DNA of 64,000 nucleotides from Candidatus Microgenomates bacterium (GTDB taxonomy: Bacteria > Patescibacteriota > Microgenomatia > UBA8517). The notes below the pieces were generated by a model that was not told where the DNA came from, searched no databases, and worked only from the letters and a program-made list of their open reading frames with translations. The DNA lies in contig JBEKNE010000001.1 of assembly GCA_049523135.1 (NCBI GenBank), positions 287,770 to 351,769 of the forward strand, given 5' to 3'. Position 1 is the stretch's first letter; each line of letters begins with the position of its first letter. Positions 17,867-55,903 of this stretch are shown in pieces. A program made the position numbers and the translations under genes.

Positions 17867-18757
17867 ATGAAAAAGGTAACTAAAGCAGTAATTCCGGCGG
17901 CAGGCTTCGGTACGAGATTTTTACCCCAAACCAAGGCTATGCCCAAAGAGATGCTTCCGATCGTGGATAAACCGATAATTCAATATATTGTTGAGGAACT
18001 GGTTGATGCAGGAATAAAAGACATAATTATTGTAACAGGCTACCACAAGCGTACTATTGAGGACCATTTTGACTATCCGAATCTTGATTTGGTTGAGAAT
18101 CTTAAGATGGGTGGAGACAAGAAACGCCCGCTTTTGGAAGAGGTTGAAAAAATTGCGGATTTGGCTAATTTTATCTATGTCAGGCAAAAAGGCCCTTACG
18201 GTAACGGCACGCCACTACTCAACGTTAGGGATATAATCGGAGACGAACCTTTTATTTATACCTGGAGCGATGACTTTATCGTTGCCCATCCCTCAAGATT
18301 TAAACAGCTGATTGCAGCCTATGAAAAGTACGGATATAGCTGTCTTAGCGGTGTAAAAGCGATTAAAGATGAAGATTATGACAGATATGGTTTTGTCGGC
18401 GGAAAGAGTCTCGAGCCCGGGGTTATTGATGCCAATGTGATTATAGAAAAGCCTGGTAAAGAAAACGCCCCTTCCGATCTGGCCACTGTTTCGGGATTTT
18501 TATTCACTCCCGATATTTTTGATTGTTTGGACAGAGCTTTAGCCAGGCTTGAAGACGGTCGGGAATTTTATTATGTGGATGCCCTGAAACTTATGCTTGA
18601 GGATGGGAAGCATGTGCTTGGGGTAGAAATAAAGGACGGCAAATACTATGATACCGGCAATAAGCTTGAGTACCTAAAAACTGTAGTTGAATTTGCTCTG
18701 AAACACCCGGATATGGGTGAAAAATTTAGAGATTATCTCAAATCCCTGGAGTTTTAA
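17867..18757 (+). CDS. galU: UTP--glucose-1-phosphate uridylyltransferase
   Basis: AVIPAAGFGTRFLPQTKAMPKEMLPIVDKPIIQY, the canonical GalU N-terminus; 296 aa. Confidence 0.9.
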   Translation: MKKVTKAVIPAAGFGTRFLPQTKAMPKEMLPIVDKPIIQYIVEELVDAGIKDIIIVTGYHKRTIEDHFDYPNLDLVENLKMGGDKKRPLLEEVEKIADLANFIYVRQKGPYGNGTPLLNVRDIIGDEPFIYTWSDDFIVAHPSRFKQLIAAYEKYGYSCLSGVKAIKDEDYDRYGFVGGKSLEPGVIDANVIIEKPGKENAPSDLATVSGFLFTPDIFDCLDRALARLEDGREFYYVDALKLMLEDGKHVLGVEIKDGKYYDTGNKLEYLKTVVEFALKHPDMGEKFRDYLKSLEF

Positions 18758-18772
18758 GATTCTTCCTCAAAA

Positions 18773-18801
18773 TTGATCCGGATTGCTCCTAGCAGTATAA
18801 T
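18773..18801 (+). promoter_or_regulatory. Sigma70-like promoter (TTGATC - 17 nt - TATAAT) 10 nt upstream of the ATG at 18812
   Basis: Hexamers at 18773-18778 and 18796-18801; no SD; implies a near-leaderless transcript. Confidence 0.45.
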
Positions 18802-18811
18802 TTGAACCTAT

Positions 18812-19312
18812 ATGAATGAAAAAGACGGTCTATTTATAAGTCCCACCAAAGGTAGGATGACTTCTTCTGAGGCTATTGAGGATATATCAAAATTTATAAA
18901 TGAAATGCCTGAAAAGTTTTACCGGATCGTAATAGGTTCGGATTCTCAGGCCAAAAGGACCAACGGTAAAAGCGAAGTTGACTATGTTACGGCTTTGATA
19001 GTCCATCGGGAAGGCTGTGGAGCCAGGTATTTTTGGAGGAAGGAAAAAGTTTTTCAGACTCCAATTCTGAGGGATAAAATTTATAGAGAAACTTCAATGT
19101 CGCTTGCCACCGCCGAGGAAGTAGTTCCTCTCCTTAGGGAAGCTATTTCCCCCACAAAATATAATTTTGAGATCCATATTGATGTTGGACCCTTGGGTCC
19201 TACCCGCGATATGATAAACGAGGTAACCGGTATGGTTCAGGGAAACGGCTTCAAAGCCAAAACCAAGCCCGAGAGCTGGGGAGCTTCAACTGTTGCGGAT
19301 AAACACACCTAA
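18812..19312 (+). CDS. Hypothetical protein (possibly YkuK/DUF458-like RNase-H-like fold; assignment from memory only)
   Basis: 166-aa ORF preceded by TTGATC-17-TATAAT. No motif I can assign firmly. Confidence 0.45.
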   Translation: MNEKDGLFISPTKGRMTSSEAIEDISKFINEMPEKFYRIVIGSDSQAKRTNGKSEVDYVTALIVHREGCGARYFWRKEKVFQTPILRDKIYRETSMSLATAEEVVPLLREAISPTKYNFEIHIDVGPLGPTRDMINEVTGMVQGNGFKAKTKPESWGASTVADKHT

Positions 19313-19325
19313 ATACCCTGTAGTC

Positions 19326-19354
19326 TTGACTTTTAGATTCAGTAGTGGTAGCAT
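19326..19354 (+). promoter_or_regulatory. Possible promoter (TTGACT - 17 nt - TAGCAT) driving a ~135-nt leader for the GC-rich Nudix-like gene
   Basis: Hexamers at 19326-19331 and 19349-19354; a strong AAGGAG RBS lies downstream at ~19481-19486. Confidence 0.35.
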
Positions 19355-19422
19355 CTCTCCGTTCGTGGAATAACTCGCCCTTTCAAATCAGCTTCAAATT
19401 ACACCCTAAATTCATTTTAGAG

Positions 19423-19437
19423 GTGCCCGAACAATTT
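19423..19437. repeat. Left arm of an inverted-repeat pair flanking the GC-rich gene (GTGCCCGAACAATT)
   Basis: A perfect 12-nt reverse-complement match (GTGCCCGAACAA vs TTGTTCGGGCAC at 20183-20194), extending to 15 nt with one mismatch. GC-rich in an AT-rich background. Confidence 0.6.
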
Positions 19438-19494
19438 TGGGTAAAAAACTGTTATAAATCTATATTTTGAAAAGCCAAGAAAAGGAGAAAAGAA

Positions 19495-20181
19495 ATGGCT
19501 ACTCAGAAGTTCGTTCCTGTAAGTGAAATCGATTCCAAACTTCTTCCGAAAATTCAAAATTACCTTCCAAGGTATGAGAACGGCATTTTTGTCGGTCTCG
19601 GAAAAACCGGGAAAGATTCGTACATTCGTGGATTCGTCTGCGATGTCGAAGATGACGGAACGATCGTAAAAGTCAGGTACGATGCCCTCAAGAAATTTGA
19701 TGGGCTTGTCGGCGAAGACGGTCATGCGACTCCAAGCGCGGTTATGGTGGTTGCGGAAAGTCGTGCAGACGGCATCTATCTCTATTGTGCCCCTGAGTAT
19801 CGCGTCTTTATCTATGACCATGTTAATAATCAACTTGGTGTTACAGTAGAAGGCTTTGCGGGCGGATTTACGGAAAAAGGTAAGGAACCGGCGGAGACGG
19901 CATTGGAAGAGGTTCTTCAGGAACATGGTATTGTTGTCGGAGCCGTTTGGCCTATTGTGCGAATCGGATATGCCTCGGATAATCGAGCCATGACTGAGAC
20001 GTGCATTGAATATTATCTTGGTATGTTTGAACGCCAGGTCGGCCAAGATCTACAAGGGGATGAAGTTATCCAAAAAACCGAAGCAATTCGTGTCGATCAC
20101 TTTGTTCCCGGTCTTGACGGTATCGTCGATACGGCTTACGCTTTCTTGGTTTCGCACCTCAAGCTTGTCAAGCCAATGTAA
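19495..20181 (+). CDS. Nudix-fold protein with degenerate Nudix box; GC-rich, probably horizontally acquired
   Basis: Strong AAGGAG RBS 8 nt upstream of ATG. The segment GGFTEKGKEPAETALEEVLQEHGI aligns position-by-position with the Nudix box but has K, E and Q at three catalytic positions. GC content is clearly higher than in neighbouring genes. Confidence 0.6.
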   Translation: MATQKFVPVSEIDSKLLPKIQNYLPRYENGIFVGLGKTGKDSYIRGFVCDVEDDGTIVKVRYDALKKFDGLVGEDGHATPSAVMVVAESRADGIYLYCAPEYRVFIYDHVNNQLGVTVEGFAGGFTEKGKEPAETALEEVLQEHGIVVGAVWPIVRIGYASDNRAMTETCIEYYLGMFERQVGQDLQGDEVIQKTEAIRVDHFVPGLDGIVDTAYAFLVSHLKLVKPM

Positions 20182-20194
20182 TTTGTTCGGGCAC
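20180..20194. repeat. Right arm of the inverted-repeat pair (AATTTGTTCGGGCAC), abutting the stop codon of the Nudix-like gene
   Basis: See the left arm; the arm centres are 758 bp apart. Confidence 0.6.
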
Positions 20195-20202
20195 TTCTGG
20201 CG

Positions 20203-20261
20203 CCAGCCCCTCTTGGGAATACTGTATCAATTGCTGCTACTGATACAAAAGAGGTGGCTGG
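20203..20261 (+). other. Branched stem-loop: 12-bp GC-rich outer stem with one bulged T, enclosing a 34-nt loop that contains a nested 6-7 bp hairpin (GTATCA...TGATAC)
   Basis: CCAGCCCCTCTT (20203-20214) pairs with AAGAGG-T-GGCTGG (20249-20261). Inner stem 20224-20229/20241-20246. Confidence 0.45.
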
Positions 20262-20279
20262 TTGTCATGAAGAAGTTGC

Positions 20280-20340
20280 CTGTGCGGTTGTAAGAATTTT
20301 AATTTACAAAAATTAAAAGATCCCAACCGCACAGCAAGAA
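20280..20340 (+). terminator. Second branched stem-loop (11-bp outer stem CTGTGCGGTTG/CAACCGCACAG with a nested perfect 9-bp AT hairpin) followed by a T-rich tract; probable intrinsic terminator for the 19495..20181 transcript
   Basis: Outer stem 20280-20290/20324-20334; inner TTTTAATTT-acaa-AAATTAAAA at 20297-20318; downstream sequence ...attttcatttttta. Confidence 0.4.
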
Positions 20341-20427
20341 TAAAGTATTTTCATTTTTTATATACAAACTTCATGTTTGTTGAAGCAATTCAAGACCAAT
20401 TCCTATTTTTCGAATCTTAATTGAAGA

Positions 20428-20456
20428 TTGCATCTCGTCGTTTCTTTTGCTACTAT
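20428..20456 (+). promoter_or_regulatory. Sigma70-like promoter (TTGCAT - 17 nt - TACTAT) 7 nt upstream of the rfbF ATG (leaderless-type)
   Basis: Hexamers at 20428-20433 and 20451-20456; ATG at 20464; no SD. Confidence 0.45.
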
Positions 20457-20463
20457 TTAAGCC

Positions 20464-21255
20464 ATGCAGACAGTTATTTTGTGCGGCGGCAAGGGCACAA
20501 GAATGAAAGAAGAGACGGAATTTCGTCCCAAGCCACTGGTTGAGATAGGTGGTATACCAATCCTCTGGCATATTATGCAAATCTACATGTACTATGGTTA
20601 TAACGACTTCATCTTGGCGTTAGGATATAAGGGAAACATGATCCGCGACCTATTTAAGGAGTGGTATACAAATACGAACGATTTCTCCATTGATATGTCT
20701 ACCGGTAAGACTACGGTTTTGAGTAATAGGCAGAGAAATTTTAAAGTCACTTTGGTAGAGACCGGGGACACACCCGATAAAGAAATCTTAACCGGTGAGA
20801 GAATTTTAAGGACAGCCCCATACATTAAAGGTGATGAATTTATGCTTACCTATGGTGACGGGGTTTCCGATATCGATATAAAGAAAGTCGTAGACTTTCA
20901 TCATAAGATGGGAACTCTGGCTACTGTTTCAGGTGTCCATCCCAAATCCAGATTCGGCCTTGTCGAAAGAGATAATAAAACAGGACTGGTTACTCAGTTT
21001 AGTCAGTATCCTGTCATGCGTGAGTATATAAGTGGAGGTTTTATGGTTTTTAAAAGAAAAGCCTTGGACTATTTTACAGACGGTCAGATGGAAGAAGGTT
21101 TGGGTCATCTTGCTGAAGACAAGCAGTTATCAATGTATATTCACGAAGGATTCTGGAAGGCTGTTGATACATATAAAGAATTGGAACAACTTAATCAGCT
21201 TTGGTATGATGGCCGTCCTTGGGCCGTATGGGAGAAAAAAGATAATCAGAAATGA
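20464..21255 (+). CDS. rfbF: Glucose-1-phosphate cytidylyltransferase
   Basis: Near-collinear similarity to Salmonella RfbF/Yersinia DdhA: MQTVILCGGKGTRMKEE..RPKPLVEIGGIPILWHIM ... LTYGDGVSDIDI ... GGFMVF. Confidence 0.9.
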   Translation: MQTVILCGGKGTRMKEETEFRPKPLVEIGGIPILWHIMQIYMYYGYNDFILALGYKGNMIRDLFKEWYTNTNDFSIDMSTGKTTVLSNRQRNFKVTLVETGDTPDKEILTGERILRTAPYIKGDEFMLTYGDGVSDIDIKKVVDFHHKMGTLATVSGVHPKSRFGLVERDNKTGLVTQFSQYPVMREYISGGFMVFKRKALDYFTDGQMEEGLGHLAEDKQLSMYIHEGFWKAVDTYKELEQLNQLWYDGRPWAVWEKKDNQK

Positions 21256-22319
21256 AGGAAGACCTTGGAAAATTTTTTAAGGGTAAAAAAGTCCTTATAA
21301 CAGGTCATACCGGCTTCAAGGGAGCTTGGCTTGCCGAAGTTCTCACTCTCTGGGGAGCCAAAGTAATCGGAGTATCTCTGGAGCCATACACGGAACCCAA
21401 TCTCTACACTGTTCTTAAACTTGGTGAAAAGGTAAATAATTATTTTGCCGATATCACGGATCAAAGGAGGCTGGCGGATATTTTTGCAAAAGAACAGCCG
21501 GAAATTGTTTTTCACTTGGCAGCCCAAGCAATAGTCAAGATAAGTTATGAGGATCCTCTCCGTACATTTAGGGCAAATGTCATAGGATCTGCAAATGTAC
21601 TTCAAACAATCCGCGAGACAAAATCGGTTAAAACCGGAGTAATGATAACTTCTGACAAGGTTTACGAAAATAAAGAGTGGGTACATCCGTACCGTGAGAT
21701 AGACAGGCTTGGAGGGCACGATCCGTACAGTGCCAGTAAAGCCGCAGCGGACATTATTGATCAGTCTTTCATAAAATCTTTTTTCACTGAGGAAACTGAT
21801 CCCTTTGTCGGTATTACCCGTGCGGGAAATGTCATTGGAGGTGGGGATTGGTCGCCTTACAGAATTATTCCGGACGTGGTACGTGCAATTTACGAAAAAG
21901 GCGAAGCTGTCGTAATTCGAAACCCTCAGTCAATTAGGCCTTGGCAGTTTGTTTTGGAGCCGCTTTCCGGTTATCTTCTTCTTGCCAAAAAACTATTTGA
22001 AGGTGACAGGTCATTAATAACCACTTGGAATTTTGGTCCGCATCAGGGCAATTTTGTAACTGTTTCTGAGTTGGTTGAAGCCGGAGTTAAAATTCTCGAC
22101 AAGGGTTCATACAAAGTTGTGCCCGATAAGAGTTTTCACGAATCAACATTTTTAAAACTCGATATTTCCAAAGCCCACGATCTCCTTGGCTGGAGTCCAA
22201 AACTGGATATCAAAGAAACATTGGGATACACATACGATTGGTATAAAAATTATTATGAGCATCTGAAGTCTCCAACTGAATTTACCGATAAGCAGATAAC
22301 CGAATATTTTTCTAAATAA
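21252..22319 (+). CDS. rfbG: CDP-glucose 4,6-dehydratase
   Basis: KVLITGHTGFKGAWL Rossmann motif, YSASKAA catalytic region, RAGNVIGGGDW and IRPWQFVLEPLSGY motifs shared with RfbG/DdhB. Start overlaps the rfbF stop. Confidence 0.9.
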   Translation: MKEDLGKFFKGKKVLITGHTGFKGAWLAEVLTLWGAKVIGVSLEPYTEPNLYTVLKLGEKVNNYFADITDQRRLADIFAKEQPEIVFHLAAQAIVKISYEDPLRTFRANVIGSANVLQTIRETKSVKTGVMITSDKVYENKEWVHPYREIDRLGGHDPYSASKAAADIIDQSFIKSFFTEETDPFVGITRAGNVIGGGDWSPYRIIPDVVRAIYEKGEAVVIRNPQSIRPWQFVLEPLSGYLLLAKKLFEGDRSLITTWNFGPHQGNFVTVSELVEAGVKILDKGSYKVVPDKSFHESTFLKLDISKAHDLLGWSPKLDIKETLGYTYDWYKNYYEHLKSPTEFTDKQITEYFSK

Positions 22320-22852
22320 TGATTTTCACTCCAACAAAAATTGACGGAATGTTTGAAGTTACTCTTGAACCCCATGAAGACGAAAGAGGTTATTTCAGAC
22401 GTATGTTTGCCGAAGAGGAATTTGCAAAGGCGGGGATAACCGATTTCAAAATAGTCCAAATTAATCAAGCTTATACAAAATCTGCCGGGGTTTTGCGGGG
22501 ACTTCACTGGCAGACGGAACCAAAACTGGAAGCGAAATACTTCCAATGTTTAAATGGAGAGATCTTTGATGTTGTGGCAGATACAAGACTGGATTCAAAA
22601 ACTTATGGTGTCTGGGCGGGTTTTCATCTCAAGAGTGACGAAAAGAAACTTTTGTTTATTCCCGGAGGCGTTGCCCATGGATATGAAACATTAACAGATA
22701 ATTGCATGGTTCAATATATGGTTTCGGAATTTTATTCGCCTGAGGTAGAAAAAGGTATCAGATGGAATGACCCCACATTTAATATTGAATGGCCTCTTGA
22801 ACCCACCTTCATGTCCGAAAAAGATAAAAATCTGCCGGATTTTAAAAAATGA
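22319..22852 (+). CDS. RmlC-like cupin sugar-nucleotide 3,5-epimerase (predicted to act on the CDP-4-keto-6-deoxyhexose)
   Basis: About 177 aa; ERGYFRRMF and RGLHWQ motifs of the dTDP-4-dehydrorhamnose 3,5-epimerase family. Confidence 0.8.
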   Translation: MIFTPTKIDGMFEVTLEPHEDERGYFRRMFAEEEFAKAGITDFKIVQINQAYTKSAGVLRGLHWQTEPKLEAKYFQCLNGEIFDVVADTRLDSKTYGVWAGFHLKSDEKKLLFIPGGVAHGYETLTDNCMVQYMVSEFYSPEVEKGIRWNDPTFNIEWPLEPTFMSEKDKNLPDFKK

Positions 22853-23718
22853 AAAATAAAGTATTGATATTGGGTTCTCAGGGAACACTTGGACAATCTT
22901 TGGTTAATGAATTTCAAAAGAATGGGTATGAAGTGGTTGCATGGGATAGGGGTGACTTGGATGTCACTGCTCCCGACGCTCCAAAAAAGATTAAGGATCT
23001 CCATCCTCAAATAATAATTAATGCTATTGCCTATAATGCGGTAAATAAGATGGAGACTGATGAAAATGAGAGAAAAATTGCGTTTCTGATTAACGCTAAA
23101 GCCCCCGGAATTCTGGCAAATACAGCGAAAAGTATTGGAGCGATTTTTGTTCATTATTCCACGAGTTATGTATTTCCCGGAGATAAAAAAGAAGGGTACA
23201 GGGAAACAGACACTCCGGGCCCTGTAGATATTTATGGTGAATCTAAGCTGGAAGGCGAGAAAGCAGTAGAAAAAGTTGGAGGCAAATATTATATCTTAAG
23301 GCTTTCCCGTCTTTTTGGTGTAAAAGGTGCAAGTGAGATGAGCAAAAGAACATTCGTGGATATTATGATTACCGAGATTGACAAGAGTGAATTGGAAGTT
23401 GGCGACACGGAGGTTAGTTCACTGACCTACGCTCCCGACTTGGCGAAGGTGACAAGAAAAATTGTCGAAGAAAATAAACCTTATGGCATCTACCACTCCG
23501 CAAACGAGGGACTGTGTACCTGGTATGAATGGGCAAAAGAAATTTTCAAAGATTTGGGTAAAGGACCAAAAGTAATTCCCGCAAAACACACTCTAACACC
23601 AGGTGGAGTAAAACATCCCCAATATTCGGGTCTTATAAATACAAAACTTTCCAAGCAAAGAACATGGCAGGAAGCTTTGAAGGAGTTTATAGAAGCGGAG
23701 TATAAAAATCAAAAATGA
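22849..23718 (+). CDS. RmlD-like NAD(P)H-dependent 4-ketoreductase (dTDP-4-dehydrorhamnose reductase family)
   Basis: N-terminal Gly-rich dinucleotide-binding motif ILGSQGTLGQ, a YSTSYVF/YGESK catalytic region, and RmlD-like length. Confidence 0.8.
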   Translation: MKNKVLILGSQGTLGQSLVNEFQKNGYEVVAWDRGDLDVTAPDAPKKIKDLHPQIIINAIAYNAVNKMETDENERKIAFLINAKAPGILANTAKSIGAIFVHYSTSYVFPGDKKEGYRETDTPGPVDIYGESKLEGEKAVEKVGGKYYILRLSRLFGVKGASEMSKRTFVDIMITEIDKSELEVGDTEVSSLTYAPDLAKVTRKIVEENKPYGIYHSANEGLCTWYEWAKEIFKDLGKGPKVIPAKHTLTPGGVKHPQYSGLINTKLSKQRTWQEALKEFIEAEYKNQK

Positions 23719-45720: not shown

Positions 45721-45752
45721 ATTATTACCTTCAGGCATGCTACAATTGAAGG

Positions 45753-47255
45753 GTGGAAGAAGATGCTTTTGGAGGTCATATTGATCCTACATCCGAGATA
45801 AACCTTGAGACTGTTAAAGGAAGAACAGTAAAAGGGATAGTTGCCTTAACCCAACAGTATTTTGGCGTTTATATAATCACCATAATTGCCTACTTCTTCC
45901 TGGGTAAATTTTTGAACCCTGTGCTTTTTGGGACATTTGGGGTAGTCTCGGCAATTATCAACTTTTTGGTTTACTTTTCCGATATCGGGTTAGCAGCTTC
46001 CTTAATTCAGAAAAAAGAAAAGATTACTCAAGAAGACTTGAGAACAACTTTTACAATTCAGCAAATCCTTGTATTTACCCTGGTAGCAATTGTTATCGGT
46101 GCAACTTCTCTTATAAGACGGTTTTACAACCTGGATCAGAGTTCCGTATATCTTCTTTATGCACTTTGTTTTTCTTTCATAATGTCCTCACTTAAATCAG
46201 TGCCGTCGGTAATCTTGGAGAGACATTTAAAATTCGAAATAATTGCCCTTTCAGCAGTTATAGAAACCACGGTTTACAATGTAATTTTGGTATTTTTTGC
46301 TTGGAAAGGGTTTGGAATTACCAGTTTTACTATTTCGGTAATTGCGAGAGGAATCATTGGTGTAATAGTTTTGTATTTGTTTCAGCCATGGAGACCGGTG
46401 CTCCAGATATCCAGACCGTCACTTAAAAAACTTCTTGTTTTTGGAATTCCTTATCAAATAAACACGTTTATTGCCGTTGTTAAAGATGATGGATTAACTC
46501 TAATTTTGGGTAGAGTAATAGGATTGGGACCTCTTGGAATTCTTTCCTGGGCCCAAGGATGGATTCAAATGCCCCTGAGAGTAATTCTTGATAATGTAAC
46601 CAGAGTTACTTTCCCTGCCTTTTCCAGAATGCAGGATAAAACCGATGAATTAAAAAAGAGCGTAACAAGTTCTATCTTTTTTATTACCTTTTTAGTTTTC
46701 CCTGCGGTTACCGGAATTGTTATTTTGGCCCCTATTGTTTTTCAGACGATACCTAAATTCCAGCAGTGGATGCCTGCAGTTATCCCTCTTACTTTTCTTG
46801 CGGTGAATGTTCTTTTTGCCGCGGTTACGACACAATTAACCAATCTTCTCAATGCAGTGGGTAAGATCAAAATAACTTCAGGCCTCATGATAATGTGGAC
46901 TGCTTTAACTTGGATTCTTGTTCCCTATTTAGGGGTGAAATATGGAGTAAATGGAGCCTCGTTAGGTTATGCGATTGTTGGAGCATCTTCGGTTGTGGCA
47001 ATAGCAATAGCGAAAAGATATGTTGATTTTTCTCTATCGGAAAGTACTCTTAAACCGCTTTTAGCTTCATTTGTAATGGGAGTAACCTTGTTCGTTTTGA
47101 GAAGATTTTTACCTGTTAATCTTTACTCAATATTTATATTGACTATAGTGGGAATGGTGACTTATTTTGCTTCAATTTTTGCTCTTGTCGGGATGTCGAT
47201 AGTTACAGACGTTAAGAGAGTTGTCGGATTAATAATTCACAAAAATGAAGCTTAA
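45753..47255 (+). CDS. Wzx-like MOP-superfamily polysaccharide/oligosaccharide flippase
   Basis: GTG start directly after an in-frame TGA. 12-14 TM helices with the MOP/Wzx N-terminal pattern (KG..VKG...L.....FG...). Confidence 0.7.
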   Translation: MEEDAFGGHIDPTSEINLETVKGRTVKGIVALTQQYFGVYIITIIAYFFLGKFLNPVLFGTFGVVSAIINFLVYFSDIGLAASLIQKKEKITQEDLRTTFTIQQILVFTLVAIVIGATSLIRRFYNLDQSSVYLLYALCFSFIMSSLKSVPSVILERHLKFEIIALSAVIETTVYNVILVFFAWKGFGITSFTISVIARGIIGVIVLYLFQPWRPVLQISRPSLKKLLVFGIPYQINTFIAVVKDDGLTLILGRVIGLGPLGILSWAQGWIQMPLRVILDNVTRVTFPAFSRMQDKTDELKKSVTSSIFFITFLVFPAVTGIVILAPIVFQTIPKFQQWMPAVIPLTFLAVNVLFAAVTTQLTNLLNAVGKIKITSGLMIMWTALTWILVPYLGVKYGVNGASLGYAIVGASSVVAIAIAKRYVDFSLSESTLKPLLASFVMGVTLFVLRRFLPVNLYSIFILTIVGMVTYFASIFALVGMSIVTDVKRVVGLIIHKNEA

Positions 47256-48933
47256 TTGGAAAAAGTGGCTTTTGATTTTGGTTGGGTCGATCACATGGTC
47301 TTTAACCATGGTCAGAAGTGGCTTAACTTATTCTTTTGGAATAGGCTTTTGGGGAGCAAACGGGCACGATGGAATTTGGCATATTGCACTAATTAAAAGT
47401 TTGGCTAAGGGAAATTTCCAAATGCCAATTTTTTCCGGTTGGGGAATACAAAATTACCATATCGGCTTTGATTTACTTCTTTCATATATAGTCAGGTTTA
47501 CCAAAATCTCCCCATCTTTCCTGTATTTTCAGATAGTTCCTCCACTGCTCGCTCTTTTTATAGGTTTTCTGACGTATAAATTTGTTTATCTTTGGAGAAA
47601 GTCTGAAGGTCAGTCACTTCTCGCAGTATTTTTCGTGTATTTCGGTGGAAGTTTTGGATGGCTTATCTCACTGATCAGCAATCAGGGTTGGGGAGGGGAA
47701 AGCATGTTCTGGTCTCAGCAGTCAATCTCCACCCTTATTAATCCCCCTTTTGCACTTTCTTTAATAATAATTCTTGCCGGATTAATTTATCTGAAAAAAT
47801 ATTTGGAAAAGAAATTGTTGTTAAATTTTTGTCTTACGGTTTTCTTTTTCGGCATATCGATTTTTATTAAAGTTTATGCAGGTCTTTTGGTGTTAATATC
47901 AATTTTGGTTGCTTCTATCTGGCAAGTTATCAAAAAGAAGAATTATTCTTTGCTTGGGATAACTTTAGTATCCGGGATAATATCTCTACTCTTATTTTTG
48001 CCGTTTAATAAATCGTCTGCCAATTTAATTTCCTTTAATCCTTTCTGGTTTTTACAAACAATGCTTATTGCGGCGGATCGGCTGGATTGGCAAAAGCTAT
48101 ATTCGGCAATGACAACTTATGCAAGCGGACATATTTGGATAAAAGCAGTGCTTGCTTATGGCTTGGCATTTATAATTTTTATTCTTGGTAATTTCGGTAC
48201 CAGGATTATCGCTCTAAAATCATTATTCAAAAAACCTAAAAAGTTATTATTGGCAGGCCCTATCGAAATCTTCATTTTTACTCTTATTGCGGCAGGTATA
48301 ACTGTACCCATGCTTTTTACTCAAAAAGGAACAGCATGGAATACGATCCAGTTTTTATATTACTCGCTGATTTTTGCAGGAATAGTGGCAGGGATAGAAA
48401 TAGATAGTTGGGTTAATAATTTATCTTTGTTCAAAAAGAGTTTAATAATAATTGTTTTTGTATTGATTACAATTCCGACCACTATTGCCTCAATGGATAA
48501 TTATTTCCCGGTTAAGCCTCAATCAATGCTTCCAACTAGTGAGGTTGAGGCTTTGAAATTTCTCTCGACCCAACCTGATGGAGTAGTTTTAACTTATCCG
48601 TTTGATGCGGATAAAGCTCTGGCGGCAAAACCCCCAAGACCTTTATATCTCTATACGTCCACAGCTTATGTTTCTGCTTTTTCCGGAAAGACAACCTTTT
48701 TAGAGGATCAGATAAATTTAGATATTATGCAATATCCCTGGCAGGAGAGAAGAGCTTCCGTTGAAGACTTCTTAAATATGGCAAATACTTTTACGGCCCA
48801 ATCTTTTCTCAAGGAAAACGATATATCATATGTTTACTGGATTACGGGTCAGCATGCAAAAATACCTGATGTTAATTTGAGTCTCATGCCTATATTTAAA
48901 AACAGTGATGTAACAATTTTCAAGGTAAAGTAA
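47245..48933 (+). CDS. Uncharacterised polytopic membrane protein, 'NGHDGxWH' family (family B; candidate polymerase/ligase or GT-C)
   Basis: Many TM helices plus a ~150-aa C-terminal soluble domain. Clear paralog of 54065..55903, sharing GANGHDGIWHIAL, FGGSFGW..GGESMFW and the C-terminal VVLTYPFD...AFSGKTTF motifs. Confidence 0.5.
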   Translation: MKLNWKKWLLILVGSITWSLTMVRSGLTYSFGIGFWGANGHDGIWHIALIKSLAKGNFQMPIFSGWGIQNYHIGFDLLLSYIVRFTKISPSFLYFQIVPPLLALFIGFLTYKFVYLWRKSEGQSLLAVFFVYFGGSFGWLISLISNQGWGGESMFWSQQSISTLINPPFALSLIIILAGLIYLKKYLEKKLLLNFCLTVFFFGISIFIKVYAGLLVLISILVASIWQVIKKKNYSLLGITLVSGIISLLLFLPFNKSSANLISFNPFWFLQTMLIAADRLDWQKLYSAMTTYASGHIWIKAVLAYGLAFIIFILGNFGTRIIALKSLFKKPKKLLLAGPIEIFIFTLIAAGITVPMLFTQKGTAWNTIQFLYYSLIFAGIVAGIEIDSWVNNLSLFKKSLIIIVFVLITIPTTIASMDNYFPVKPQSMLPTSEVEALKFLSTQPDGVVLTYPFDADKALAAKPPRPLYLYTSTAYVSAFSGKTTFLEDQINLDIMQYPWQERRASVEDFLNMANTFTAQSFLKENDISYVYWITGQHAKIPDVNLSLMPIFKNSDVTIFKVK

Positions 48934-48935
48934 AG

Positions 48936-50621
48936 ATGTTTAAAAATCTTATTAATAATAAAATATTTTGGGTAATCATTATTACACTCTTAACTATTCC
49001 GACATTTTGGAGCATGTGCAGAGCAGGCTACTTTCCGATGCAGGATGACCTTCAGGCTTTTAGGATTTATGAGATGGATAAATGCTGGCAGGATTTTCAA
49101 ATTCCCTGTCGTTGGGTTCCAGATGCCGGATATGAATATGGTTACCCGCAATTTAACTATTATCCTCCGAGTGTTTACTACGTGGGAGAAGCCATCCATA
49201 AAGTGGGATTTCAATTTATTGATTCAGTAAAAATACTCTTTGCATTAGGTTTTGTTCTGTCTGCACTTGCAATGTTCCTTTTGGTTAGCGATATTCTGGG
49301 GAATTTTCCAGGATTTGTGTCCGCTCTTATCTATACGTACGTTCCCTATAAAGCTGTTGATGTTTATGTAAGAGGTGACATGAGTGAATTTTGGTCAATG
49401 GTATTTTACCCGTTGGTTTTTTGGGCCGTTTATAAAATTATTAGGACAGCAAAGTGGAGGTATATAGCTTTGCTCGCCGTTTCTCTGGGACTGCTTTTTA
49501 TGACGCACCTTCTCATGTCTATGATTTTTTCTTTGTCGGCAGCCGTGTGGACTCTCTATTGGTTAATTAAAGAAAAGAAGTTCAAACGAATTTATAGAGT
49601 TATTGCCGGGGTTGCCTTGGGGTTTGGTTTTGCGGCATTTTATGTTTTACCAGTAATTCTTGAGAGGCAATATGCCCACACGGAGACACTTACTGAAGGC
49701 TATTTCGGTTATCAACAGCATTTTGTGAACCTTTATAAATTGTTTATTTCCAGAGAATGGGGGTATGGGTCTTCTGGCTTTCCTAATGAGAAGTTAAATC
49801 TTTCGACGGGGTTGATTCAGTGGATATTTGGGCTTATTACAATCGGAATTGCAAGTCTTTATATATTACTTAAGAAAAAGAAAGAGCATCTTTACCTTGT
49901 TCTCACTTTGGGTGCACTTGAGCTTTTTACTCTTTTTATGATTCATGTAAAGTCCAGTTTTATTTGGAATGCTATCCCAATTCTTTCCTGGCTGCAATTT
50001 CCGTGGCGGTTTTTGGCTATCAGTATTTTCCTTTTGGCAATTTTAGCCGGAATTGGGGTTTATCTTATACCAAAATTTAAAGTTTGGGTTGGGTTAGCAA
50101 TTATCTTAATAGCTTTCGTGCTTAACGTCGGTTATTTTATACCGAAGGCTTGGGAGAATATTACTGATGCTGACAAGTTCTCAGGAGTTTCGTGGCAAAA
50201 GGAGCTTACAATCAGCATTTTTGATTACTTGCCGATATATGCTAAACTTCCGCCGATAACCGCCGCTCCCGCTACTCCCGAGGTTCTTGAGGGAATGGCG
50301 ACGTTTTCAAATTATACAAAAGGCAGCGATTTCCAAAGGGGAATTATCAATACCGGTAAAAATGGAGCGCTAATAAGGCTTCCGCTTTTTGACTTCCCAG
50401 GGATGGTTGCAAAAATTGACGGAAATGTTGTTGCCCATGTTAACAATAATTGTCAGGGTGAGGAATTTTGCTTGGGGCTTATTACTTTTGAAGTACCTAG
50501 TGGAGAACATAAAATTGAAGTAGAATTAACAGATACGCTGGTGCGGAGGGTTGGCAATTATTTATCAATTGTTTCGTTAGTTGCCGTTGGCGGACTTTAT
50601 ATTTTTAAAAGAAAGAAATGA
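48936..50621 (+). CDS. YfhO-related short-form GT-C membrane protein (family C)
   Basis: First-loop FPMQDDLQAFRIYEMD. The C-terminal module FDFPGMVAKIDGNVV...EVPSGEHKIEVEL plus a terminal TM matches the C-terminus of the YfhO-like gene at 39382... Confidence 0.55.
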   Translation: MFKNLINNKIFWVIIITLLTIPTFWSMCRAGYFPMQDDLQAFRIYEMDKCWQDFQIPCRWVPDAGYEYGYPQFNYYPPSVYYVGEAIHKVGFQFIDSVKILFALGFVLSALAMFLLVSDILGNFPGFVSALIYTYVPYKAVDVYVRGDMSEFWSMVFYPLVFWAVYKIIRTAKWRYIALLAVSLGLLFMTHLLMSMIFSLSAAVWTLYWLIKEKKFKRIYRVIAGVALGFGFAAFYVLPVILERQYAHTETLTEGYFGYQQHFVNLYKLFISREWGYGSSGFPNEKLNLSTGLIQWIFGLITIGIASLYILLKKKKEHLYLVLTLGALELFTLFMIHVKSSFIWNAIPILSWLQFPWRFLAISIFLLAILAGIGVYLIPKFKVWVGLAIILIAFVLNVGYFIPKAWENITDADKFSGVSWQKELTISIFDYLPIYAKLPPITAAPATPEVLEGMATFSNYTKGSDFQRGIINTGKNGALIRLPLFDFPGMVAKIDGNVVAHVNNNCQGEEFCLGLITFEVPSGEHKIEVELTDTLVRRVGNYLSIVSLVAVGGLYIFKRKK

Positions 50622-52312
50622 AGAACTTTTCAAAAATTATAAAAGCTTTAAGTAAATTTTGGTGGGTTTTGATTTTGCTGTGTTTAATTCCTTCTTTCAA
50701 CAGGTTAATTCACAAAGGCTTTTTCCCGACTCAGGATTATATATATGTTGCCCGGATTTATGAGATGGATAAATCTCTCAAAGATGGGCAATTTCCGGTA
50801 AGGTGGGTTCCGGATTTTCGCTACGGTGAACCGCTTTTTAATTATTATGCGCCACTTCCTTATTATTTGGGATCTGTAATTCACACTTTCAATTTCAGTT
50901 TTCTTGATACCTCCAAGATTCTCTATGCACTGGGATTGATTCTTTCGTTTGGTACAATGTACATTCTTGGAAAAGAACTTTGGGGAAAGGCGGGGGGATT
51001 GATATCCGGCTTTGTTTATCTTTATGCTCCCTACCGGGCGGTGGATATTTTTGTTAGGGGAGATATTTCGGAGAGCTGGGTATTTGTATTTTTCCCGCTT
51101 TGTTTTTGGGCGGCTTTGAGATTGTCAAAAAAGGTTAACGGCAAAAATATTTTTCTTCTCGCAATATCTTTAGCCGGACTTTTCTTTACGCATAATGTGA
51201 TGACCATGCTTTTTGCTCCGTTTTTTGCGCTTTGGATACTTTATTTAGTTTGGGATAGAAAGAAATTTAGTCTGATTTATCCTCTGGTATTTTCTTCAGT
51301 TTTGGCCGCAGGTGTCGCAGCAAGCTTTCTTCTACCGGCATTTTTTGAAAGATCGTATATTCAGACGCAGCACTTGACGGGAGGATATTTTGATTTCAGA
51401 GGACATTTTGTGGAACTTAAGCAATTCTTTTCAACTTTCTGGGGATATGGCGCCTCGGTTTGGGGTCCGGAAGACGGCATGTCTTTCCAGGTTGGGGTAG
51501 TCCAATGGGTGACGATTGGGTTGACTCTTGTTTTTGCATTTATAAAAAGAAAGCAGATTATAAAAGATCGGACAATATATCTTCTCGTGGTGGTTTTTGC
51601 ATCATTTCTTTTCTCCCTATTTATGCAACATAACAGATCAACTTTTATTTGGCTTGCGGTACCCATGCTTCAATATGTCCAGTTTCCGTGGAGATTTCTG
51701 GCAATAACAGTTTTCTTTGTTGCGGTTTTTGCCGGAAGTTTGGCGAAATTACTACCCAAGTATAAATATGCAATATTAACTTTGGTGGTGATCTCTTGTA
51801 TTGCTTTTACTTATAACTATTTCAGACCCGAAAGTTATTATGATGATGCAACCGATGCTGGTTATATTTCCCAGCAAACCCTTTCGATTGACGATAAACT
51901 TCCCAAAGATTACTTGCCTATTTGGGTGAAAAAAATAACATCTCCAAAGATAACTCAACCGCAGATAGTCAGCGGCCAAGCGAATGCTTCGGATTATTCC
52001 GCAAGGAGCAACTCCGCAACCTTTAACATAAATGTTGAAAAGAATTCAGTAATTGATGTTCCTTTGACATATTTTCCAGGATGGGTAGCCGAACTAAACG
52101 GGAAGAAAATTTCTTTAATGGATCCGTCGGACCTTGGAATCATCAGATTTTCGGTACCGGAAGGAAATTATAAAATTTCTCTTTATTTGGGTAATACTCC
52201 GCTTAGGGAAGCAGCTAATATTATTTCCGTTATATCTATTCTGGGTTGTCTTGTCTTTGTTTTGTATAAAGGTCCATTATGTGTCTGGAGAAAAGGCGAT
52301 AAAAATAATTAA
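50618..52312 (+). CDS. YfhO-related short-form GT-C membrane protein (family C paralog)
   Basis: FPTQDYIYVARIYEMD, and the C-terminal YFPGWVAELNGKKISL...SVPEGNYKISLYL module plus terminal TM. Tandem paralog of 48936... Confidence 0.55.
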   Translation: MKNFSKIIKALSKFWWVLILLCLIPSFNRLIHKGFFPTQDYIYVARIYEMDKSLKDGQFPVRWVPDFRYGEPLFNYYAPLPYYLGSVIHTFNFSFLDTSKILYALGLILSFGTMYILGKELWGKAGGLISGFVYLYAPYRAVDIFVRGDISESWVFVFFPLCFWAALRLSKKVNGKNIFLLAISLAGLFFTHNVMTMLFAPFFALWILYLVWDRKKFSLIYPLVFSSVLAAGVAASFLLPAFFERSYIQTQHLTGGYFDFRGHFVELKQFFSTFWGYGASVWGPEDGMSFQVGVVQWVTIGLTLVFAFIKRKQIIKDRTIYLLVVVFASFLFSLFMQHNRSTFIWLAVPMLQYVQFPWRFLAITVFFVAVFAGSLAKLLPKYKYAILTLVVISCIAFTYNYFRPESYYDDATDAGYISQQTLSIDDKLPKDYLPIWVKKITSPKITQPQIVSGQANASDYSARSNSATFNINVEKNSVIDVPLTYFPGWVAELNGKKISLMDPSDLGIIRFSVPEGNYKISLYLGNTPLREAANIISVISILGCLVFVLYKGPLCVWRKGDKNN

Positions 52313-52315
52313 TCT

Positions 52316-53515
52316 GTGAAAAAATTATTAATTTTGGCAATTGTATTGCGAGTTTTGGTGGCAGCATTTTTTTTCCATCCGGATATTAAAACTTTTAACT
52401 ACCAAGCTTCATTTTTAAAACAAGGGGTTTTTAATATCTATTCTTATTTAGTTGACAATAAAGCGCGTTTGCCTCTGAAGGATAATTTCGTTTATTTTCC
52501 TCTAACATATTTTACCCTTGGTGGATATCAAGCCGCCATCTCGCCAATATTGGGTAGGGGATTTGATAGTTGGTTAGGAAATCCTGACTCCGCCACTATG
52601 GTTACCAATCCGAATATCTTCGGATATATGTTGGCCTTAAAATTGCCATATTTGGTTTTGGATATTCTGGTGGCATACATGCTTTTGAAGTTTATTGAGG
52701 ATAGGAAGAAGGCTCAAAAAGCATTTCTAATTTGGCTCTTTAATCCCATCACAATAATACTTATTTATGTTTATGGGAATATTGATATTTTTCCGGTTGT
52801 TCTTACTGTTTTTTCCCTCCTGCTTATTAAAAAAGACAAGCTGAAGTCTGCGGTAGCCATCTTGGGACTGGCTGCGGGTTTTAAGCTTTATCCTCTGCTT
52901 TTGGTGCCTTTTTTGGCTCTTGCCGGCAAAAATACTAAGGAAAAAATTTGGTTGGTGGCAATTCCCTTTTTAATATTCGGGGCAATATGTGTTCCATTTT
53001 TGTCTGGAGCTTTTGTTCAATCGGCGTTAATCTCCGGTCTTACAACAGGAACCTTTAGCCCGAGTTTTAGCGTTGGATTCGGCGAATCAATAATTGTGGG
53101 TTTGGTCGGAATGACGGTTCTTTTTTTCTATGAAATGCTGATAAATAAAAAACCCAACGTTTTAATTTATTGGATAGCGCTTTTGATGATCATCTTTTCT
53201 TTTTCCCATTTCCATATTCAGTGGCTTTTGTGGGTTGCACCGTTTATAACAATAATTTTGGCGGAGGATAGCGACCTTACCTTGTTAATTTCTTCAGTTT
53301 CAGTAATGGCAGTTGCGATCCCTCTTTTGTACGAAGATCGTTTTATGACGATGGGGCTTTTGCGTACCTTTAGTCTTTATTACGATATGTTGCCAACACC
53401 GTTTGTGGTTATACAAAGAGTGTTTGACCCTTATAATTTGCAGAGCATTTTACATTCTATGATGGCAGGTGGCACACTGGTTATGATATATAGACTATTT
53501 AAAGTAAAATCATGA
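52316..53515 (+). CDS. GT-C membrane glycosyltransferase, GT87/DUF2029-like
   Basis: GTG start; about 10 TM helices; AAGFKLYPLLLVP motif. Related to 30085..31275. Confidence 0.55.
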   Translation: MKKLLILAIVLRVLVAAFFFHPDIKTFNYQASFLKQGVFNIYSYLVDNKARLPLKDNFVYFPLTYFTLGGYQAAISPILGRGFDSWLGNPDSATMVTNPNIFGYMLALKLPYLVLDILVAYMLLKFIEDRKKAQKAFLIWLFNPITIILIYVYGNIDIFPVVLTVFSLLLIKKDKLKSAVAILGLAAGFKLYPLLLVPFLALAGKNTKEKIWLVAIPFLIFGAICVPFLSGAFVQSALISGLTTGTFSPSFSVGFGESIIVGLVGMTVLFFYEMLINKKPNVLIYWIALLMIIFSFSHFHIQWLLWVAPFITIILAEDSDLTLLISSVSVMAVAIPLLYEDRFMTMGLLRTFSLYYDMLPTPFVVIQRVFDPYNLQSILHSMMAGGTLVMIYRLFKVKS

Positions 53516-54108
53516 AAAAGCTTATTTGGTTTACCAGTATTTTTATTTTAGTTTTAATATTTATAGTCCCCGCAATTATGGTGTTAGGAATTAAGATAAT
53601 TCCTTCTGATGTTCAACCACCCCTTCAATATACACAAGATGTTTATCAGGATCTCTACATATCTCAGGAATTTACCAGTCTTTTACCAAATCTTACAGAT
53701 ATTGGTATGTCCATCAAAAACCCAAATCTTAAAGATCAAAATGATATAACTCTTTCTTTGTACGATCAGAATGGGCAGCTGGTTAGGACTTCAAAACTAA
53801 ATGGACTAAATATTGGCGATGGAGCTTTCGTTAAATTCCAATTTAGTCCTATTATAGATTCCCTGAATCAGAGATATTCGTTTACCATAATGTCTCCGTC
53901 CTCCTATCCTGAAGATTTATTTGAACTTTTTTACACGGATGACAAGCCTTCGTGGATAGGTCAGATGCAATTTAACGGTAAGAATGTGGTCGGAGGGCTT
54001 TCGTTTGTAACTTTTCACCAACCTGTAAGTAAGATTGGTTTGATTAAGAGTATCTATTCCGATTTCATTTCCAGATTTCTACATCTTCATTCTCAAAAAT
54101 CAATTTAA
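53512..54108 (+). CDS. Hypothetical membrane-anchored exported protein inside the GT-C array
   Basis: Start overlaps the upstream stop. N-terminal TM anchor followed by a beta-rich ~170-aa domain. The 3' end overlaps the convergent gene by ~44 nt. Confidence 0.4.
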   Translation: MKKLIWFTSIFILVLIFIVPAIMVLGIKIIPSDVQPPLQYTQDVYQDLYISQEFTSLLPNLTDIGMSIKNPNLKDQNDITLSLYDQNGQLVRTSKLNGLNIGDGAFVKFQFSPIIDSLNQRYSFTIMSPSSYPEDLFELFYTDDKPSWIGQMQFNGKNVVGGLSFVTFHQPVSKIGLIKSIYSDFISRFLHLHSQKSI

Positions 54109-55903
54109 GCCCTATCTTTGACGGGTCAACGACGGGTTTCATTGCTTTGGGGTAGTAAAGAATATTTGCACTGGATTTTTCAAAAGCCGATTTCACTTCA
54201 TTGATATTTTTATCCGAAAATACGGTAGTTTTTATATCCAACCTTGGTTTCCAATTATAGCCCATGATATCCACTTGTTCGTAGTCGTCCATGAAAGTTC
54301 TTCTATCCGAAAATGCGGCGAGGTAAGATGTATCAAACCAATCCCAAATATTTGGAGTATCTCCTCCGAGATTAAGATATGGATTGTATGGAGGAGTTAG
54401 TATTACCGAATTTTGTGGAGTATCTTTCTTTAAGAAATTTATTGCTTGCAGTTCCTGTGCGCTTATCATTGCGTAAGCCGGTCGGGAATAAAATTCATAA
54501 AGTAGGCCAACTTGAGTCGGAATCATTAAGAGAATGATCATAGGTATAAGTAGTTTGTATTTAGAAGTAAGCTTGGAAACTTCTATACCTGCCAGAATTC
54601 CGAAAAAGAGCAAAAAGTATTGTAAAAATTGAATGGTGTTACTAGCTATACCATTCTGCAGGAATAGGAGAGGAAAGATAATCGATAGTGCAATTGCAAC
54701 CTTAATAAATAAGTGTGTTTTCAAATACTGACGTAGCCCCAGGAATCTCATACCCAGGTTACCGAAAAAGAAAATCAAGAAGGCAATACCTTCGTACTCA
54801 ATTACTCTTAAAATAGATTTGATTCCTCCATGGGCTACGTAAAATTCCCTTCTGAGTTCCAAGTCTAGCCAATTAAGCCTAGAAGGTTCTACCACCATTG
54901 TCCGTATATACCACCAAGGTTGGAAAATTAGAAACGAGGTTGAATTGGAGGCGTTTGGAAAATATAGGAATACAGATAAAGCTCCACTTATGATGGTCAG
55001 GAATATAAGTGTTATATCCTTTTTCCTAAAAAACTTCCATAGACTATAAATGCCGAGGGAAATTAGAGCTATAATTCCGGCATAAACTTTAAAACTGACT
55101 AGGGTTCCAAAAAGGATTATACAAATTATAAATAAGATATTTCTTTTCTTTTTATCTTTTTCCCGCTCTAAACTTATCAAAAAATATAAAGCGGTAAAAA
55201 TCAGAAAATCCGATGCTATTTGAGGAGAATTTCCGCTTGCACTTTGTGGCTGGCTGGCCCAGAAAATACTTTCTCCGCCGATGGTTCTATTTTTTAGATA
55301 AGTAACGATAAATCCAAAACTTCCGGCGAAATAGGAAAAAATTGTTGACCAGATAGCAGCTGATTTTTCCCCATCAGCTTTTTTTATCAGAAAGTATGCA
55401 GATACACCAAAGAACAGAGAGTAAATAAAAGGAAATATGCGAAAATATAAATCAATGTTGTTAACCGGTGTATATTTACTTACAACCGCTGGCAATATAT
55501 CACTGAAGAAATGATAGTTGACGAGTTTTTCTCCGGCAAGAACAGGATTTTGGAAAGGCCAGCCTCTTTTTATTTCATTCATAAGGGCAATATGCCAGCT
55601 TCCGTCGTGTCCATTAGAACTCCAAAAAAGTAAGTCTCCTGCTTTATCAAAAGTTCCACTTGGGGAAATCACCGCTAATTGTCCCGCAATACCAACAACA
55701 AAGACCAAAATTGTAATGATGGCGGTTAAATCAAATTTGACCCTAATAGATTTAACTATTTTAATGAATGACTTTGCTGCCAGTATTACCCCGATAATTA
55801 CAATTGGGATAATAAGATATAATCCGTGAATTAATATTAAAAGATAGGAGATAAGTGTTAATGTGGCAAATGCAGCAATTCCACTCATTAGTATTTCTTC
55901 CAT
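54065..55903 (-). CDS. Uncharacterised polytopic membrane protein, 'NGHDGxWH' family (family B paralog)
   Basis: SSNGHDGSWHIAL, FAGSFGF...GGESIFW and a C-terminal VILTPPYN...AFSDRRTF domain, collinear with 47245... Start set at the internal ATG (MEEILMSG...); the longest ORF begins with TTG at 55936. Confidence 0.5.
   Translation of the reverse strand: MEEILMSGIAAFATLTLISYLLILIHGLYLIIPIVIIGVILAAKSFIKIVKSIRVKFDLTAIITILVFVVGIAGQLAVISPSGTFDKAGDLLFWSSNGHDGSWHIALMNEIKRGWPFQNPVLAGEKLVNYHFFSDILPAVVSKYTPVNNIDLYFRIFPFIYSLFFGVSAYFLIKKADGEKSAAIWSTIFSYFAGSFGFIVTYLKNRTIGGESIFWASQPQSASGNSPQIASDFLIFTALYFLISLEREKDKKKRNILFIICIILFGTLVSFKVYAGIIALISLGIYSLWKFFRKKDITLIFLTIISGALSVFLYFPNASNSTSFLIFQPWWYIRTMVVEPSRLNWLDLELRREFYVAHGGIKSILRVIEYEGIAFLIFFFGNLGMRFLGLRQYLKTHLFIKVAIALSIIFPLLFLQNGIASNTIQFLQYFLLFFGILAGIEVSKLTSKYKLLIPMIILLMIPTQVGLLYEFYSRPAYAMISAQELQAINFLKKDTPQNSVILTPPYNPYLNLGGDTPNIWDWFDTSYLAAFSDRRTFMDDYEQVDIMGYNWKPRLDIKTTVFSDKNINEVKSAFEKSSANILYYPKAMKPVVDPSKIGLKLIFENEDVEIWK

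Follow-up and report, generated by a model that had tools for sequence, protein, structure and literature searches.

A new family of predicted GT-C class A membrane proteins paired with Wzx-type flippases in Microgenomates-group bacteria

Introduction

Which protein takes over the glycan that a Wzx-type flippase delivers to the outer face of the membrane in bacteria of the Microgenomates group? The question is raised by a 64,000-nucleotide (nt) stretch of the genome of a Candidatus Microgenomates bacterium (contig JBEKNE010000001.1, positions 287,770 to 351,769; the whole stretch is hereinafter the window), in which two open reading frames (ORFs), denoted A and B, encode paralogous polytopic membrane proteins of a family that has no name in the databases, A immediately following the flippase gene. 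Microgenomates and their relatives are uncultivated bacteria with tiny genomes and almost unknown cell surfaces, and in the case at hand, 32 kb are given to 15 enzymes of the GT-C glycosyltransferase type. A and B are best viewed as members of a new sequence family that combines new motifs with a new, fixed partnership with MOP-family flippases, with or without a DUF3863-like domain, within a known fold class, namely, class A of the GT-C enzymes (GT-C_A). Below we delineate, for this large family, the predicted fold and topology, a candidate active site and the near-obligate pairing with Wzx, and then weigh the possible functions.

Two paralogous membrane proteins in the window

ORF A (47245..48933, plus strand) encodes an A-type member of the family, a protein of 562 amino acids (aa) with 11 predicted transmembrane (TM) helices and a C-terminal extracytoplasmic domain; the B-type paralog, ORF B, lies on the opposite strand (54065..55903, minus strand; 612 aa). 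Alternative starts of B are located at 55888 and 55936: the longest reading frame opens with a TTG codon at 55936, and the identical database protein P0121, at 607 aa, fits the ATG start at 55888. In a BLASTP comparison, A and B are 33% identical over 540 aligned residues (E 2e-90), that is, along the full length of the proteins, and at the sequence level, their paralogy, evidently an ancient one, is beyond doubt.

The initial annotation of this locus had proposed that A and B are paralogs and had quoted motifs common to both, and in these respects, it stands. The loop motif of the NGHDGxWH type is found in both copies, as FWGANGHDGIWH in A (47347..47382, plus strand) and as FWSSNGHDGSWH in B (55592..55627, minus strand); the mid-protein block reads FGGSFGW...GGESMFW in A and FAGSFGF...GGESIFW in B; and the C-terminal motifs VVLTYPF and AFSGKTTF of A correspond to VILTPPY and AFSDRRTF of B. 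The C-terminal soluble domain that had been recognized in both proteins is present as well, encompassing about 136 aa (residues 427-562 of A; 48523..48933, plus strand) with a mixed alpha/beta composition in the structural model. The position of A directly downstream of Wzx is equally accurate, with the A start 11 nt before the stop of the flippase gene. The suggestion that the two copies flank a pair of short YfhO-like genes needs a correction: A and B do flank this pair, but the pair is not alone between them, where four genes are found, namely, two PTPS_related/YfhO-like genes, one GT87-like gene and a gene for a 198-aa single-pass membrane protein.

Predicted fold and topology

Enzymes of the GT-C_A class are defined by a conserved module of seven TM helices that is followed by a variable C-terminal module, and by a first luminal loop that contains two helices, with the catalytic base on the first (PMC13503287). 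The AlphaFold2 model of A, built from a 37-sequence alignment (mean predicted local distance difference test score (pLDDT) 86.2, predicted template modeling score 0.89), displays this architecture. The conserved module consists of helices 5-23, 90-118, 121-133, 167-189, 192-208, 210-231, and 235-251, and the variable module of helices 298-329, 339-357, 364-390, and 395-420, after which comes the domain 427-562. The first outer loop (EL1) of the model also agrees with the definition: helix 37-54, which carries D42, is followed there by a second helix, 74-86. Finally, the structural similarity of the model to solved GT-C_A enzymes is significant; lower in the list of fold matches are Pmt4, ALG9, Pmt2, DPY19, PIG-M, AftB, AftD, and ALG3, and catalytic GT-C_A enzymes far outscore PIG-U. 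On all three counts that could be tested, the fold predicted for A and B is GT-C class A. A further trait of the class is an isoprenoid-phosphate-linked sugar donor; that A would use one is suggested by its context, namely, the Wzx flippase and the GT2s of the island that resemble polyprenyl-phosphate glycosyltransferases.

Lysine and arginine make up 15 of the 57 residues in the predicted inner loops of A and 6 of the 110 residues in the short outer loops; this enrichment on the predicted cytoplasmic side supports an N-in topology, the prediction of which had been proposed as a check, and places loops 1 and 2 as well as the C-terminal domain on the outer side. A long outer loop (252-297) connects TM7 to the next helix. 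The sole stretch of the model with low confidence, residues 151-164 (pLDDT < 50), falls within the second outer loop (EL2), which probably forms a mobile lid. Compared with A, the B protein carries an extra N-terminal hydrophobic segment without a counterpart in A, which we read as about two TM helices.

Relationship to known families

The earlier statement that the proteins could not be placed in any named family from their sequence was borne out. Neither A nor B matched any Pfam-A or NCBIfam model; when 37 family members were searched singly against Pfam at E <= 10, only noise and no recurrent match was obtained; and the family profile matched no solved structure among all Protein Data Bank sequences, oligosaccharyltransferase (OST) chains included. 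Likewise, A, B, and 35 relatives gave no match to the STT3 model PF02516 at E <= 10. Comparison at the profile level with the other GT-C proteins of the island gave signals too faint for a placement: hhalign against the nine PMT_2 paralogs of the window yielded a probability of 43% over 95 columns only (TM2-TM5), and the probability was 4% for the YfhO/PTPS-like paralogs. As far as sequence goes, the family is unclassified in databases dated 2025-2026, and a literature search for GT-C enzymes or oligosaccharyltransferases in Patescibacteria, the candidate phyla radiation (CPR) or Microgenomates found nothing relevant.

Given the predicted fold, the comparison with individual GT-C and Wzy-type families is more informative. 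With the OSTs STT3, AglB and PglB (GT66, PF02516), the family shares a C-terminal globular domain with the central-core fold. Unlike these enzymes, it possesses neither the WWDYG nor the DK/MI motif and is predicted to contain 11 TM helices, as against the 13 helices in the solved STT3/AglB/PglB structures. In place of the OST motifs, the family has its own signature, H-D-x-x-W-H, N-Y-H, G-E-S-x-F-W, and K-x-Y; at the position of WWDYG, there is no conserved WWD but rather T-[YP]-P-[YF]-[DN], which is 27-65% conserved. We rejected GT66 membership on the strength of the missing PF02516 match, the missing WWDYG and the helix count.

The layout of 7+4 TM helices plus a C-terminal domain is common to A and the GT22 enzymes ALG9 and ALG12 (PMC13503287). 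The sequence identity to ALG12/ALG9 is about 10%, with no Pfam match, and the ALG enzymes are eukaryotic proteins that use dolichyl-phosphate-mannose. A histidine-rich motif in loop 1 is not, to our knowledge, a feature of the ALG enzymes. Membership in the AftA family (GT85) was rejected because neither the N-terminal nor the C-terminal Pfam domain of AftA was matched; the donor of AftA is decaprenyl-phosphate-arabinose, and we know of no case where AftA is paired with a MOP flippase. Membership in the ArnT/PMT group was rejected in the absence of a match to PMT_2 (PF13231) or PMT (PF02366). As for Wzy and WaaL (Wzy_C; SEDS-like class B fold), the likeness consists in the genomic position after Wzx alone. 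The initial annotation had suggested a Wzy-like polymerase or ligase, or else another GT-C class: the GT-C option is upheld by the predicted fold, and the Wzy/O-antigen ligase homology was rejected, given that there is no Wzy_C match in Pfam and that the predicted fold is of class A, not of the Wzy/WaaL/SEDS type. Because the model has the characteristic features of the GT-C_A fold, and because GT66/OST, Wzy/WaaL, PMT/ArnT, and AftA each differ from the family in at least one tested feature, we regard it as a new sequence family within GT-C_A.

Conserved residues and the candidate active site

Conservation was assessed in 123 diverse representatives with 28-50% identity to A. Five residues are nearly invariant, D42 (99%), H46 (98%), Y71 (100%), H72 (100%), and K209 (100%), among them histidines and an aspartate, residues of the type whose conservation had been proposed as a check. 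In the second outer loop, the GGESMFW motif of A (47692..47712, plus strand; in the low-confidence loop 145-166) contributes E152 (94%), F155 (97%), and W156 (99%). At least 90% conservation was also observed for G26, N70, Q159, N166, Y211, P266, W268, D278, G315, and N316, as well as for R320, Q360, N366, Q369, Y475, and D488, with H41 (86%), D76 (88%), and R279 (87%) just below this level. The resulting family signature comprises [FY]-W-G-x-x-G-H-D-[GA]-x-W-H in the first helix of loop 1, where D42 and H46 are located, N-Y-H...D at the second helix of this loop, G-E-[ST]-x-F-W-x-x-Q in the second outer loop, and K-x-Y (K209, Y211) in the turn between TM5 and TM6. With this signature, it should be possible to annotate thousands of proteins that are currently denoted 'hypothetical'.

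Conservation of this kind among acidic and polar residues on the outer face is what one would expect if they line an active site. This site probably faces outward and would be formed by EL1 (H41-D42...H46 and N70-Y71-H72...D76), by the EL2 motif G-E152-S-x-F-W-x-x-Q, and by K209 and Y211. By analogy with solved GT-C_A enzymes, D42 could serve as the catalytic base or as a metal ligand. The catalytic acid of ALG12 is E35 (PMC13503287). In PglB and ArnT, this residue is D56 and D55, respectively. In ALG12, the donor phosphate is bound by R185 of the TM5-TM6 loop (PMC13503287); in the model of A, K209 appears to be the topological equivalent of this arginine and might, perhaps together with R279, clamp the phosphate of a polyprenyl-phosphate-linked donor. 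These putative roles of D42 and K209 are read from topology.

Coupling of the A type to a Wzx-type flippase

The gene that precedes A (45753..47255, plus strand) encodes a MOP/Wzx-type flippase (PF13440, E 2.6e-51; PF01943, E 5.7e-25) and overlaps the start of A. Sub-threshold matches of this flippase in NCBIfam are to 'MOP flippase family', 'O-glycosylation flippase', and TuaB models, with no MurJ model among them. To survey the linkage, we mapped the window proteins onto 80 related loci using tblastn, 71 of which include enough upstream DNA. In 67 of these 71 loci, the A-type gene is immediately preceded by a co-oriented Wzx gene, mostly with an overlap of about 4-19 nt as extrapolated from the tblastn alignments; in three further loci, a single PMT_2-like gene intervenes between the two. 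The other neighbors, namely, the PMT_2, PTPS-like, YfhO, GT87-like, and GT2 genes, are reordered between genomes. Since Wzx adjoins A in nearly all loci while the other neighbors shuffle, the Wzx-A pair is a conserved unit, and the pairing is near-obligate.

Size and taxonomic range of the family

Word-indexed searches detected over 1521 proteins related to A and over 648 related to B, both totals being lower bounds, and all these relatives are annotated as 'hypothetical protein'; those with a named source come from Patescibacteria, Microgenomates or Woesebacteria. An exhaustive search of 1.84 billion representatives with a hidden Markov model recovered 1685 clusters, counted at 50% identity, at E <= 1e-3, a number that drops to 905 when the cutoff is tightened to E <= 1e-30, and among the genomes scanned, one per GTDB species, 446 encode a relative, the named ones belonging to Woesebacteria, Microgenomates, Blackburnbacteria, and Amesbacteria. 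The family was found here only in Microgenomates-group Patescibacteria, which are part of the CPR. Many metagenome-assembled genome records of the TPA_asm type (L003, L004, L007, L008, and others) contain a Microgenomates-type island, with 46-70% identity to A, and are titled 'uncultured Gammaproteobacteria bacterium', a label that looks wrong or like a placeholder.

Clustering of the sequences yielded three groups: the A-type clade of about 560 aa, several B-type clades of about 640-670 aa, and fusion proteins of 1000-1160 aa. The B-type clades are never fused, and the fusion proteins cluster with the A type only.

Fusions with a DUF3863-like domain

In about 30 of the 150 listed representatives, the protein opens with a signal anchor, after which come some 400 aa of soluble domain and an additional TM helix that leads into the family core. 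The soluble domain, of a deacetylase/hydrolase-like kind, is DUF3863-like, with the fold of 3lm3, and is related to CE4 deacetylases, GH57, and ArnD; it also occurs as a standalone protein of about 610 aa in Daviesbacteria. Because the domain is located between two TM helices and is followed by a linker rich in lysine and arginine, its position is outside the cell. The domain is either fused to the N-terminus of A-type proteins or encoded between the Wzx and A genes, examples being the proteins P0242, P0259, P0282, and P0391 and the loci L024 (7920..9983) and L036 (7893..9956). In these two loci, a separate gene for a 687-aa protein is inserted in this place and overlaps both of its neighbors. 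P0282 (1639 aa) is the single case where Wzx, the DUF3863-like domain and the family core are joined in one protein; it may be a genuine Rosetta-stone fusion or an artefact of gene calling or assembly involving overlapping genes. A tblastn search for the DUF3863-like domain in the window was negative, and for the B types, neither DUF3863-like nor Wzx partners were ever observed.

Proposed role and alternatives

From the paralogy, fold, topological bias, residue conservation, and gene linkage, we infer that A and B would be active GT-C_A glycosyltransferases and that the most likely role of A is to transfer, outside the cell, the lipid-linked glycan flipped by Wzx, a proposal to which, taken as a whole, we assign an even chance. 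Under this scenario, the GT2 and GT4 enzymes of the island would assemble a polyprenyl-P(P)-linked oligosaccharide in the cytoplasm, Wzx would flip the product, and the translationally coupled A would then move the flipped oligosaccharide to its acceptor, be it a glycan of the cell wall, a protein, or a chain under elongation. Both A and B would act as inverting glycosyltransferases that draw a sugar or a glycan from a polyprenyl-phosphate carrier at the outer face of the membrane, B probably being the older paralog, with a specificity that differs from that of A and does not depend on Wzx, within the same 15-gene island. The reasons to consider A the user of the Wzx product are the translational coupling of the two genes, the joining of both in the fusion protein P0282, and the precedent of a four-component glycosylation system from Lactococcus lactis, where the Wzx-family flippase WpsG and the GT-C enzyme WpsJ transfer a C55-P-linked oligo- or polysaccharide to rhamnan (PMC9574508). 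As in the window, the lactococcal flippase gene adjoins that of the GT-C transferase, and the locus contains rml genes and GT2s. The likeness to WpsJ and WpsI is one of gene context, and the lactococcal model itself comes from genetics and the structural chemistry of the wall polysaccharide. No initiator pair of the WpsA/B type, which would make a C55-monophosphate-linked primer, and no WpsB/GacJ-like partner was identified in the window, although several GT2s show sub-threshold similarity to polyprenyl-phosphate glycosyltransferases.

Several observations weigh against transfer of whole chains by A. B lacks a Wzx partner, so the coupling argument covers half of the finding. No initiating enzyme of the WecA or WbaP type was detected among the scanned window ORFs of at least 150 aa that would define the lipid-linked substrate of Wzx. 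The suggested residue roles rest on a predicted model, and the sole fusion with Wzx could be an artefact. Furthermore, the single-sugar enzymes ALG12, AftA, and ArnT match the fold of A as well as the oligosaccharyltransferases do, and because single-sugar and en-bloc enzymes score alike, the fold does not separate the competing roles.

It is possible, if doubtful, that A is a single-sugar transferase of the ALG, ArnT or AftA kind, which would use a polyprenyl-phosphate-monosaccharide made by a GtrB/ArnC-like GT2 of the island and, at the outer face, attach a single residue to the lipid-linked oligosaccharide flipped by Wzx or to a wall polymer, with Wzx supplying the acceptor rather than the donor. 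The fold would fit such an enzyme equally well, but for donors of this kind, the island already encodes nine PMT_2, one YfhO, two PTPS-like, and one GT87-like enzymes, and it is only the A type that is strictly paired and translationally coupled with Wzx, the order of the other GT-C genes being variable. Moreover, known three-component systems pair their GT-C enzymes with GtrA-type flippases, not with MOP flippases. A different use of the Wzx product, whereby A would replace Wzy and polymerize the flipped repeat units outside, with ligation left to B or another enzyme, appears unlikely to us. The location of A directly after Wzx, together with the failure to find a Wzy_C- or EpsG-type protein among the scanned window ORFs of at least 150 aa, is compatible with such a function, and L. 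lactis provides a precedent in WpsI, a GT-C-fold polymerase of C55-P-oligosaccharide subunits (PMC9574508). Yet no chain-length regulator similar to Wzz or WpsH was recognized beside A, the predicted fold is of class A and not of the Wzy/WaaL/SEDS type, and the likeness of the C-terminal domain is to the unit with which OSTs bind their acceptors, not to any feature of polymerases.

This same C-terminal resemblance might be taken to indicate that A is a true protein oligosaccharyltransferase, a highly divergent relative of STT3, AglB, and PglB engaged in en-bloc glycosylation of secreted or S-layer proteins; with the OST motifs missing and the helix number different, we consider this improbable. 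Least probable of all is a non-catalytic GT-C-fold protein, whether a scaffold or substrate-presenting subunit comparable to PIG-U/GAB1 of the glycosylphosphatidylinositol transamidase or an accessory subunit of the flippase. An acidic residue occupies the canonical site, the polar and charged outer-face residues are 92-100% conserved among the 123 representatives, and catalytic GT-C_A enzymes score well above PIG-U, all of which speaks for catalysis.

If A indeed transfers whole glycans, it would broaden the set of en-bloc enzymes, which so far includes OSTs, ligases of the WaaL/PglL type, LCP enzymes and, as proposed, WpsJ. In either case, the family provides a concrete, testable candidate for the consumer of Wzx-flipped glycans in organisms of the Microgenomates group. 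A bolder version, which we put forward only tentatively, is that A provides the transfer step in a Wzx-dependent pathway operating without Wzy, WaaL or LCP enzymes: a bacterial relative of STT3/AglB that either lost the peptide-binding motif WWDYG or never possessed it, and that passes whole glycans to a wall polymer or a protein in Microgenomates, sometimes after trimming or deacetylation by the fused DUF3863-like domain. Should this be the case, surface glycan assembly would be completed in A by a new kind of enzyme, one that might also connect, in evolutionary terms, the oligosaccharyltransferases with the rest of the GT-C enzymes. One more GT-C family in candidate-phyla bacteria would hardly astonish glycobiologists; what stands out are the coupling to Wzx, the OST-like C-terminal unit, and the size of the family.

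The B type and the surrounding glycan island

B is a lone opposite-strand gene within a co-directional GT-C array, in the window as well as in L001 (18478..20298) and in the distant loci L082 and L083 (10001..11866), and no Wzx gene was found in the surroundings of B in the window, L001, L082 or L083. On one side, a PMT_2 gene is transcribed away from B, the two start codons being about 26-41 nt apart in the window; on the other side, a gene of about 200 codons and a GT87-like gene point toward B. In the window, the gene of about 200 codons encodes the 198-aa single-pass membrane protein (53512..54108, plus strand), the 3' end of which overlaps the convergent B by 44 nt. This protein has its single TM helix at the N-terminus, with a domain on the outer side, and has no match in Pfam, NCBIfam or the Protein Data Bank; it also adjoins B in L001, L003-L005, L029, L077, and L078, and in the form of genes for 191-207 aa proteins, in L082 and L083. 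It may be an accessory subunit.

The 15 GT-C-type proteins are encoded between 31986 and 63720, and comprise, besides A and B, nine PMT_2, one YfhO, two PTPS_related, and one GT87-like proteins. Fifteen such genes in 32 kb, nearly all of them co-directional, is an unusually dense arrangement for a bacterium with a small genome. Upstream of the array are rml genes, several GT2s, one GT4, and one GT2 fused to a GtrA-type membrane domain. The rmlA/B/C/D-type set (17867..23718) consists of two nucleotidyltransferases, two genes of the dehydratase/epimerase family, RmlC (PF00908, E 2.9e-58), and RmlD (E 1.1e-67); these dTDP-rhamnose-type genes suggest a surface glycan that contains rhamnose. The fusion of a GT2 catalytic domain to a GtrA/DPMS-type TM domain (28666..29814) is a candidate polyprenyl-phosphate sugar synthase, possibly also a flippase, that would supply the PMT_2-type enzymes, and several GT2s of the island show sub-threshold similarity to polyprenyl-phosphate glycosyltransferases.

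A scan for promoters and terminators in the region 45000-57000 detected nothing above the expectation from shuffled sequences. Among the mostly plus-strand genes of the window, there is a minus-strand ORF of 396 aa with a TTG start (30085..31275) and no Pfam match, which may be spurious. Upstream of the island, at 12342..15126, lies a cell-division hydrolase module that encodes an FtsE-like ABC ATPase, an FtsX-like permease, and a PcsB-like coiled-coil/peptidase protein.

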